Assembly (NCBI GenBank): GCA_029861345.1
Contig: JAOTZM010000002.1
Span: 7,020-39,019, forward strand
Source of the DNA: Nitrosopumilus sp.
GTDB taxonomy: Archaea > Thermoproteota > Nitrososphaeria > Nitrososphaerales > Nitrosopumilaceae
Length of the DNA stretch: 32,000 nucleotides
Direction: 5' to 3'
Below are positions 26,708 through 27,514 of this stretch, one piece after another. Made by a program: the position numbers and the translations under genes. Numbering within the stretch: position 1 is the first letter of the stretch; every line of letters begins with the position of its first letter. The notes below the pieces were generated by a model. The model was not told the DNA's origin. It did not search any database and saw only the letters and a list, made by a program, of their open reading frames with translations.

Positions 26708-27514
26708 TTATTTAGAAATAATTTTTGATTCAAGTAATTCATTTTTTATGTCTAAGAAGATTTCTTTTACAGAATTTTTGAACGGAATATCTACTAAACC
26801 ATGTAGATCCGACGGCAACAAAGGTTTTCCCTTTCTAATACAACAAACATTATTTCTTCCAAGTTTCCCAATAAAGTAACCTAGTTCAAGAATGACATTT
26901 TCTCTAGCACGAGGTTTTGGTTTTGCTGATATTTTATCGAGATTGCCCATATCATCAGGAGTTAAAATCACAAAAGCATATCGTACATCAAGTGAACTTT
27001 TCTCAAATTTTTCAATAACTGTTCTACTTTGATTAGGTTTATCCATTAGAATAATTGGATCTAGATTAAATTCATTCTTTAATAATAAAACTAATTCATC
27101 ACGAATCTTCAAGTCACGGCCATGTACTACAAACACTTTTCGGGATTTAATATTTCCAAATTTCGGTGTTTCTGTCTTTTGTAGACCTTTACGATTGATT
27201 TGATTTATAGCAGATTCAAGAATTCCTTTTGCTTTTTCTAATCCTGATAAATATGCCTCTTGTTTAATTTGAGCCAATTTTTCTTCATAATCTAAACGAG
27301 TAACCATGATAGCTCTACCAGAAGGAGCCCAATCTATGGAAATAAAAAATTCATAAAATTTTGATTCTTTTCCAAAGATCTCAGATAGAACATTTTGCGT
27401 ATCAATAATCCACTTAACATGGTCAGCCGATTTGTTATATTGATGTGTTAAATTCTCTATCTCATTTATTTGCAATTTAATATCTTTAATTGCTGATTTC
27501 GAATCCAAATTCAT
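26708..27514 (-). CDS. helical N-domain fused to a TIR-like nucleotide-binding domain (CAP12/PycTIR-type)
   Basis: The C-terminal blocks KVFVVHGRD / [20 protein letters not shown] / [13 protein letters not shown] / [29 protein letters not shown] / [13 protein letters not shown] match the pattern of the 'predicted nucleotide-binding protein containing TIR-like domain' family. The N-terminal ~125 aa are coiled-coil-like with no recognised motif. Confidence 0.75.
   Translation of the reverse strand: [268 protein letters not shown]

Follow-up and report, generated by a model that had tools for sequence, protein, structure and literature searches.

A single-gene TIR candidate for antiviral defence in Nitrosopumilus and its widely shuffled N-terminal domain

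Few cells in the ocean are as abundant as ammonia-oxidising archaea, yet, as far as we are aware, there is little information on how they withstand their viruses. A small, single-protein immunity candidate for these organisms lies in a 32,000-nucleotide stretch of DNA from Nitrosopumilus sp. (GenBank assembly GCA_029861345.1, contig JAOTZM010000002.1, positions 7,020 to 39,019 of the forward strand), hereafter called the window, in which a gene on the minus strand at 26708-27514 encodes a helical N-terminal domain joined to a C-terminal TIR domain. The locus raises the question of what this gene is, how it came to stand where it does and whether it could act against viruses by itself.

The gene adds an archaeal member to a known candidate family, PDC-S35 in the PADLOC collection; one Nitrosopumilus lineage gained it by horizontal transfer, into a housekeeping region. 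The explanation considered most probable, albeit with modest confidence, is that the protein is a one-protein antiviral abortive-infection module in which the N-terminal domain (N-domain) would control the assembly of the TIR domains and the TIR domains would deplete nicotinamide adenine dinucleotide (NAD+). The initial annotation of this DNA had proposed an uncharacterised type of immunity module. That claim did not hold, given the full-length PDC-S35 match and the homologues that number in the thousands among bacteria, prophages and plasmids; judged by sequence comparison, the architecture is that of an existing, widespread candidate family, and the novelty had been overstated. Nor is a new principle involved, as a sensor and a TIR NADase effector in one polypeptide are already known. 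The parts of the gene are as follows.

26708-27514, minus strand: complete TIR gene of 268 amino acids, made up of the helical N-domain, a linker and a PF10137 TIR domain (open reading frame (ORF) list, sequence and full-length PADLOC match)
27179-27514, minus strand: N-terminal helical domain, residues 1-112, without counterpart in Pfam or the PDB, proposed as a sensor or assembly module (AlphaFold2 (AF2) and profile searches)
27140-27178, minus strand: low-confidence linker, residues 113-125 (predicted local distance difference test (pLDDT) score of 61 for residues 111-120; length variable across the family alignment)
26729-27139, minus strand: TIR domain, residues 126-262, comprising the Pfam envelope 126-246 and a C-terminal helix (PF10137, Foldseek and phmmer)
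26885-26887, minus strand: codon of E210, the predicted catalytic glutamate, equivalent to SfSTING E84 (HMMER alignment to 7un8)

Family membership and the predicted active site

Both the ORF list and the sequence give an ORF that starts at an ATG and encodes 268 residues, with the protein sequence quoted in the initial annotation. Profile hidden Markov model (HMM) searches of Pfam and PADLOC returned significant matches in each. PADLOC model PDLC05005 of PDC-S35 aligns profile positions 3-253 of 264 with residues 5-263 of the protein (E=2.2e-58), and another four models of PDC-S35 reach E<=1e-40. The PDC systems are 145 "phage defence candidates" that entered PADLOC after being collected from genes lying inside BREX, DISARM and type I restriction-modification (RM) systems; the source paper describes them as untested (Payne et al. 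2024, bioRxiv 10.1101/2024.01.29.577857).

The C-terminal part had been read as a TIR domain of the CAP12/PycTIR type, and this assignment was borne out far beyond chance. PF10137 (CAP12/Pycsar effector TIR) matches with an envelope of exactly residues 126-246 at profile positions 1-118 of 119, scoring 120.7 bits (E=4.4e-35) against a gathering cut-off of 24.7 bits. A full-length AF2 model built on 48 full-length homologues has a mean pLDDT of 88 and shows alternating strands and helices; the best solved-structure matches found by Foldseek are the Cap12 TIR-STING structures 9lmq and 7un8 (E ~1e-6, probability 1.00), with MyD88, SPARTA and other TIR structures likewise at probability 1.00. The predicted fold is thus a flavodoxin-like TIR. 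A phmmer search of the PDB also returned a Cap12 match, at 1e-4.

Alignment to 7un8 with HMMER pairs F128, R204, N206, E210 and D236 with the SfSTING pocket residues F6, R78, N80, E84 and D110, respectively; the +8 offset between the chain index and the published SfSTING numbering was verified on P32, W33, F37, G43 and L47 of PMC9402430. All five residues are invariant in the 48 full-length homologues. E210, which sits in the motif ELGYF and had been assigned to the catalytic glutamate position of TIR NADases, indeed aligns with the SfSTING catalytic E84. Because all five pocket residues are conserved, the C-terminal domain is placed with the effector TIRs, the clade that depletes NAD+, and is predicted to have a complete catalytic set. 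In SfSTING, D110 is donated by the opposing TIR, and ligand-driven TIR-STING filaments complete the active site in trans (PMC9402430). Conservation of this trans-acting aspartate suggests that activity of the protein described here would likewise need TIR-TIR packing.

From these elements a mechanism can be proposed. The C-terminal TIR would be a latent NAD+ glycohydrolase. To its own active-site residues (F128, R204, N206 and the catalytic E210) an adjacent TIR would add D236 in trans, and the enzyme would be active only when TIRs pack. The helical N-domain of 110 residues would hold the protein in a resting, probably dimeric, state until a trigger of viral origin, in all likelihood a protein that forms multimers, causes it to nucleate a higher-order assembly. 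The assembled TIRs would then deplete NAD+ and arrest the infected cell before virions form. By analogy, precedents for such a mechanism may be found in SpbK, in which the N-domain clusters TIRs on the phage portal, and in the TIR-STING filaments.

The N-terminal helical domain

The part of the protein that would act as the sensor was described in the initial annotation as coiled-coil-like and as matching nothing. Helical it is, but a coiled coil and nothing more it is not, since it forms a compact domain: folded alone (110 residues; AF2 model built with 32 homologues), it reaches a pLDDT of 93 and a predicted template modelling (pTM) score of 0.85. Its helices span residues 5-22, 30-47 and 52-58, followed by a long one at 73-109, and W35, F47, G48 and L99 are nearly invariant. 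A counterpart in Pfam or the PDB is indeed absent. A Pfam scan of the N-domain gave no match even at E<=5, a sequence-profile search of the PDB found no relative, and Foldseek against the PDB found no fold match for the confidently predicted helical fold, the best hits being generic helix bundles at E=1.2. The domain is not unknown, however, since PDC-S35 matched over the full length of the protein and thousands of homologues exist. The absence of a cyclic nucleoside monophosphate (cNMP)-binding, SAVED, STING or transmembrane module from the protein was confirmed by Pfam scans.

In a profile search of 1.84 billion representative sequences, the N-domain matched 2,790 representative clusters at E<=1e-3, of which 936 remained at E<=1e-10. 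By this measure of sequence similarity, the N-domain is not an orphan and appears as a widespread, shuffled domain. Its fusion partners were surveyed by a Pfam scan of 20 of the best 150 matches, picked for unusual length. Besides the PF10137 TIR, the partners seen are TIR_2 (P0169, P0200 and P0216), DUF4062 (P0223), AbiJ_NTD4 (P0225), a PNP_UDP_1 phosphorylase-superfamily domain (P0236), a phage tail-collar domain (P0190) and a DpnII/MboI-type restriction-endonuclease domain (P0255). Tandem N-N-TIR arrangements also occur (P0121 and P0122, as well as P0053). Immune sensor-effector proteins show this pattern, in which a single N-terminal module is paired with effector-type domains that can be exchanged, and the exchange seen here is what would be expected of an immune sensor or assembly module. 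A sensor-type reading of the N-domain covers at least 7 different C-terminal domains and ~2,800 protein clusters.

A bolder proposal, advanced tentatively and with clearly less confidence than the reading of the protein as a whole, is that the N-domain is an undescribed, widely shuffled sensor of viral triggers, which would directly bind a viral structural protein and nucleate effector assembly, making the gene a one-protein abortive-infection system in this Nitrosopumilus. If this is true, marine ammonia-oxidising archaea would have a concrete antiviral immunity gene. The broader value of the locus lies in this domain, which is common, confidently folded, outside both Pfam and the PDB, and swapped among TIR, nuclease, phosphorylase-superfamily and other C-terminal domains. 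Identifying what it recognises would explain the whole PDC-S35 candidate family and its fusions, a family with members in Escherichia coli mobile elements as well.

The insert in Nitrosopumilus and the relatives of the gene

The gene arrived in a small insert, for which two further features are needed.

26157-28065, no strand: strain-specific insert of ~1.9 kb with three ORFs, 26229-26522 (+), the TIR gene (-) and 27812-28075 (+) (breaks in nucleotide homology; boundaries good to ~10 nt)
27534-27546, minus strand: run of A and T only, between -32 and -20 relative to the ATG, which may be an archaeal TATA/B recognition element (BRE) region (sequence and background frequency; weak evidence)

The window was compared with the PurP locus of 80 Nitrosopumilaceae species genomes. 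The TIR gene and the two ORFs beside it, 26229-26522 (convergent with it) and 27812-28075 (divergent, both as initially described), are present in none of the 80 syntenic genomes; the gene is therefore accessory, not syntenic core. Nucleotide homology to the 80 loci ends at 26146-26199 and restarts at 28062, none of them covers 26200-28000, and alignment of the junctions places the insert ~35 nt before the next gene's conserved ATG. A "block of ORFans" had been reported around the gene. This is correct for the three strain-specific ORFs, but 28072-28359, 28356-28625, 28930-29127 and 29134-29346 are conserved. The guanine-cytosine (GC) content of the insert is 28.5%, against 33.5% for the window. 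No tRNA, integrase or Rfam family was found as a sign of mobility in the insert, and its flanks hold no significant direct or inverted repeats and no clean target-site duplication, only an 8-of-13 match at the junctions. The two companion ORFs encode 97 residues (26229-26522, plus strand) and 87 residues (27812-28075, plus strand), the latter very acidic at its N-terminus; both were rejected as partner genes, as neither has a Pfam or PADLOC match and neither occurs beside the closest TIR homologues.

Apart from the window, the gene is known in one other Nitrosopumilus assembly, the metagenome-assembled genome (MAG) GCA_029860705.1, where an NCBI "nucleotide-binding protein" is 100% identical over 255 residues. 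That public gene call, of 255 residues, begins at a TTG 13 codons downstream of the ATG. The ATG at 27514 is the better start by alignment, because the first 13 residues align with conserved positions of the family. The MAG contig (JAOUAR010000014.1) breaks ~138 nt upstream of the TIR gene, at a poly-A run inside the insert (window 27475-27613). Upstream of the ATG, the "TATA-like box" that the initial annotation assigned to the gene is compatible with a promoter and not evidence for one: an A/T-only run of this kind is present in ~18% of local 15-nt windows in this stretch of 28.5% GC.

Outside this lineage, ~2,150 homologues were retrieved, many of them full-length at 35-63% identity, including Kiritimatiellae proteins. 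The three closest (57-63% identity) lie on short contigs of 31-32% GC that share with the window the TIR gene and nothing else; the gene thus moves alone, in keeping with the earlier statement that it stands alone. A metagenome scan found no close relatives of the protein. In nine other contexts, those of full-length relatives, neighbours differ and no partner gene is conserved. One holds two N6_N4 methyltransferases, the TIR gene, PD-T4-4 A and B, and then a ResIII helicase; another runs from an integrase, a split methyltransferase and an ORF without assignment through the TIR gene to MNT, HepT, ResIII and IS66. A TIR-MNT pair lies beside transposases and DUF499/DUF3780, TIR-MNT-HepT occurs in three related genomes, and one relative is near a Multi_ubiq/ThiF/BubE operon; two further contexts were uninformative. 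In several bacterial lineages the MNT gene (NTP_transf_2), usually with HepT, follows 0-4 nt after the PDC-S35-like gene (L082-L084, 10813-11458; L092, 8813-9467; L093, 2986-3294), which suggests a recurrent three-gene cassette, TIR-MNT-HepT, lying at times between the methyltransferase and the ResIII of an RM-like system.

Relatives are also found on mobile DNA. IMG/VR contains 177, none of them a close copy (>50% identity). On one viral contig the genes for the portal and the large terminase flank a full-length relative (phrog_16442) that is read from the opposite strand, and on a second the relative comes after an integrase. Among plasmids, 1,155 records encode proteins with similarity to the query, which in most cases is confined to the TIR domain. 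The 291-residue TIR protein WP_000235578.1 of E. coli, 42% identical over the TIR domain and weakly matched by the N-domain profile, is encoded directly after an integrase and a helix-turn-helix (HTH) gene, in an element that interrupts a lambdoid major-capsid gene and was found in 37 of the 5,426 complete genomes of this species (>=99% identity). In NZ_AP022222.1 (L255) this element spans 7037-18901 and encodes the integrase, HTH and TIR proteins, an Icd-like protein, a primase and a single-stranded DNA-binding protein, and in addition its own capsid, head-decoration and small-terminase proteins and an "abortive infection family" protein. We take this layout to resemble that of a capsid-forming phage satellite.

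Known systems, rival explanations and neighbouring genes

The protein resembles several known or suspected defence proteins, to different degrees. With PDC-S35 it shares the two-domain architecture and size of ~270-residue homologues in many bacteria, and bacterial members of the family are embedded in RM/PD-T4-4 islands. The host, an ammonia-oxidising archaeon, differs, and adjacency to known defence systems is seen for the bacterial relatives, this locus being flanked by PurP, TatC and TrkH. Cap12/TIR-STING (SfSTING 7un8; 9lmq) belongs to the same PF10137 subfamily, is the closest solved fold and has identical NAD+-pocket and catalytic residues, the trans-acting aspartate included, which implies assembly-dependent NADase activity. 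Unlike Cap12/TIR-STING, the protein lacks a STING or SAVED sensor and a CD-NTase operon, and its TIR is C-terminal, not N-terminal. The NCBIfam Cap12 equivalog NF050172 scores 36.5 bits over the TIR core only, short of the equivalog cut-off of 450, and no Pfam-recognisable CD-NTase was found among the flanking ORFs scanned. PycTIR of Pycsar (PDB 8jsj) also carries a C-terminal PF10137 TIR effector in a protein of ~300 residues, and its PADLOC HMM matches weakly (E=4e-10), but the protein described here has neither a cNMP-binding domain nor an adjacent PycC. As for Thoeris, Pfam reported no ThsB_TIR match, the best family being PF10137, and the flanking ORFs are without Pfam or PADLOC match.

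Two further comparisons concern single proteins. SpbK of the Bacillus subtilis element ICEBs1 combines an N-terminal recognition domain with a C-terminal TIR NADase on mobile DNA; its N-domain docks on the dodecameric phage portal, upon which TIRs cluster and NADase activity is switched on. The two proteins resemble each other in layout and in the mechanism proposed, and in nothing else. SpbK does not share the uncharacterised helical N-domain described here, and it is absent from the PDB sequence matches at E<=1 and from the listed top 50 Foldseek matches. The nearest TIR domains, at 55-61% identity, belong to uncharacterised AbiTii-TIR fusions, likewise single proteins with an N-terminal helical "Abi" domain. 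Their N-domains are unrelated to the one described here, homology having been rejected at an hhalign probability of 0.3%. TIR proteins that stand alone were explicitly excluded from a systematic survey of TIR signalling systems, on the grounds that they are likely to be effectors that deplete NAD+.

Several points weigh against an antiviral role. The surroundings are housekeeping genes (purine biosynthesis, TatC, PurP and TrkH), with no other defence gene or PADLOC match near the TIR gene, and in other genomes the same hotspot holds non-defence cargo (a histidine kinase, TFIIB, tetratricopeptide repeat (TPR) and pentapeptide proteins, and a metallopeptidase). No report of an experimental test of any PDC-S35 member was found in the searchable literature, from which, as from the supplements of Payne et al., the names PDC-S35 and COG4271 (the older one) are absent. 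The relative orientation of N-domain and TIR is uncertain in the model (pTM 0.56). Finally, the TIR/nucleoside-deoxyribosyltransferase-like fold also houses enzymes for other nucleotides, as the viral fold matches show, so NAD+ is a presumed substrate.

This last point leads to the proposal, considered unlikely, that the substrate of the TIR-like domain is not NAD+ but a different or modified nucleotide, or the ends of nucleic acids; the effector would then deplete nucleotides or hydrolyse nucleosides. Its fold relatives include nucleoside 2-deoxyribosyltransferases and CMP/hmCMP hydrolases, folds that are grouped in the extended data of PMC9402430, and the N-domain is also fused to the PNP_UDP_1 domain. 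However, the residues that hold NAD+ in SfSTING are all conserved, and the nearest solved structures are NADases. Somewhat less improbable is that the protein is toxin-like or part of an addiction or stress module, in which a growth-arresting TIR, set by its expression level or by an unlinked partner, persists as a selfish element or stabiliser of mobile DNA. The MNT-HepT toxin-antitoxin pair directly downstream of the gene in several bacteria, the relatives on plasmids, in prophages and in IS-rich regions, and arrival in a small insert with two small ORFs without match are all compatible with this. Against it, no antitoxin-like partner is conserved, neighbours differing even among the closest homologues, and shuffling of the N-domain over several effector types is typical of immune sensors; moreover, toxin-antitoxin action and abortive infection are not mutually exclusive.

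The TIR could instead produce a signal, as Thoeris ThsB does, or be the effector of a split cyclic-nucleotide system with its partner elsewhere, an idea held to be very improbable. The window does encode a stand-alone class III nucleotidyl cyclase of 227 residues at 12278-12961 on the minus strand (Pfam Guanylate_cyc, E=9.5e-7; PADLOC PycC, E=3.7e-14), and PycTIR and Cap12 HMMs match the TIR protein weakly. The cyclase nevertheless lies 13.7 kb away, in a part of the window that is unrelated. On metagenome contigs, 121 relatives of the cyclase (51-94% identity) have varying neighbourhoods, and none of the 80 loci kept of these carries the TIR gene, so a split Pycsar with this cyclase was rejected; a Pycsar-type effector next to the cyclase was likewise absent from the window and from the one related locus inspected (L196). 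The all-helical N-domain without cNMP-binding, STING or SAVED module, the Cap12 score far under its cut-off, the lack of a ThsA-like effector among the flanking ORFs and the effector role of known PF10137 members also argue against signalling. Another improbable account is that the gene is a passenger, recently transferred and not expressed or not functional in its archaeal host. Its presence in a single Nitrosopumilus assembly besides the window, GC content below the genome average, weak promoter evidence and the fact that the insert parts the next gene from a conserved upstream block are in favour of this, but the reading frame is unbroken and retains all residues that are invariant in the family, and the closest relatives come from contigs of similarly low GC. 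The abortive-infection reading is thus preferred, with antiviral function in the archaeal host, NAD+ as substrate, activation by assembly and a sensor role of the N-domain as its predicted components.

The genes around the insert belong to a housekeeping region that encodes SAICAR synthetase, PurF/PurL/PurQ/PurS, TatC, a flavoprotein, PurP (DUF1246/DUF1297), a BFN-domain protein and a CBS-TrkH transporter. The order conserved in relatives is TatC, flavoprotein and PurP, then 28072-28359, 28356-28625, 28930-29127 and 29134-29346, then BFN and TrkH. The gap between PurP and the next gene ranges from ~0.1 to 9.6 kb in other Nitrosopumilaceae. Because the larger gaps hold miscellaneous cargo, the locus is a general variable hotspot; a defence island at this site in other Nitrosopumilaceae was considered and rejected. 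Its cargo includes TFIIB with a B12-binding protein, TPR and pentapeptide proteins with a DUF4344 metallopeptidase, an 866-residue FN3 protein and a Cache-type histidine kinase (L031, L047, L059 and L074).

Upstream of the insert, a non-coding block at 25971-26158 (plus strand) recurs, with 72-97% identity, at dozens of loci of Nitrosopumilaceae as a conserved element. Where no insert intervenes, this block directly abuts the start of the 28072-28359 gene, from which the insert here parts it. The true start of that gene is probably the ATG near 28099 (MGRTIF...), and because the insert splits it from the conserved block, it may now rely on the co-directional insert ORF 27812-28075. A 46-residue ORF at 25859-25999 (plus strand; MTRRVTIMIDEELDKKIRWYQ...), without Pfam match, is present in roughly a dozen related loci and presumably encodes a protein resembling the ribbon-helix-helix (CopG-like) type.

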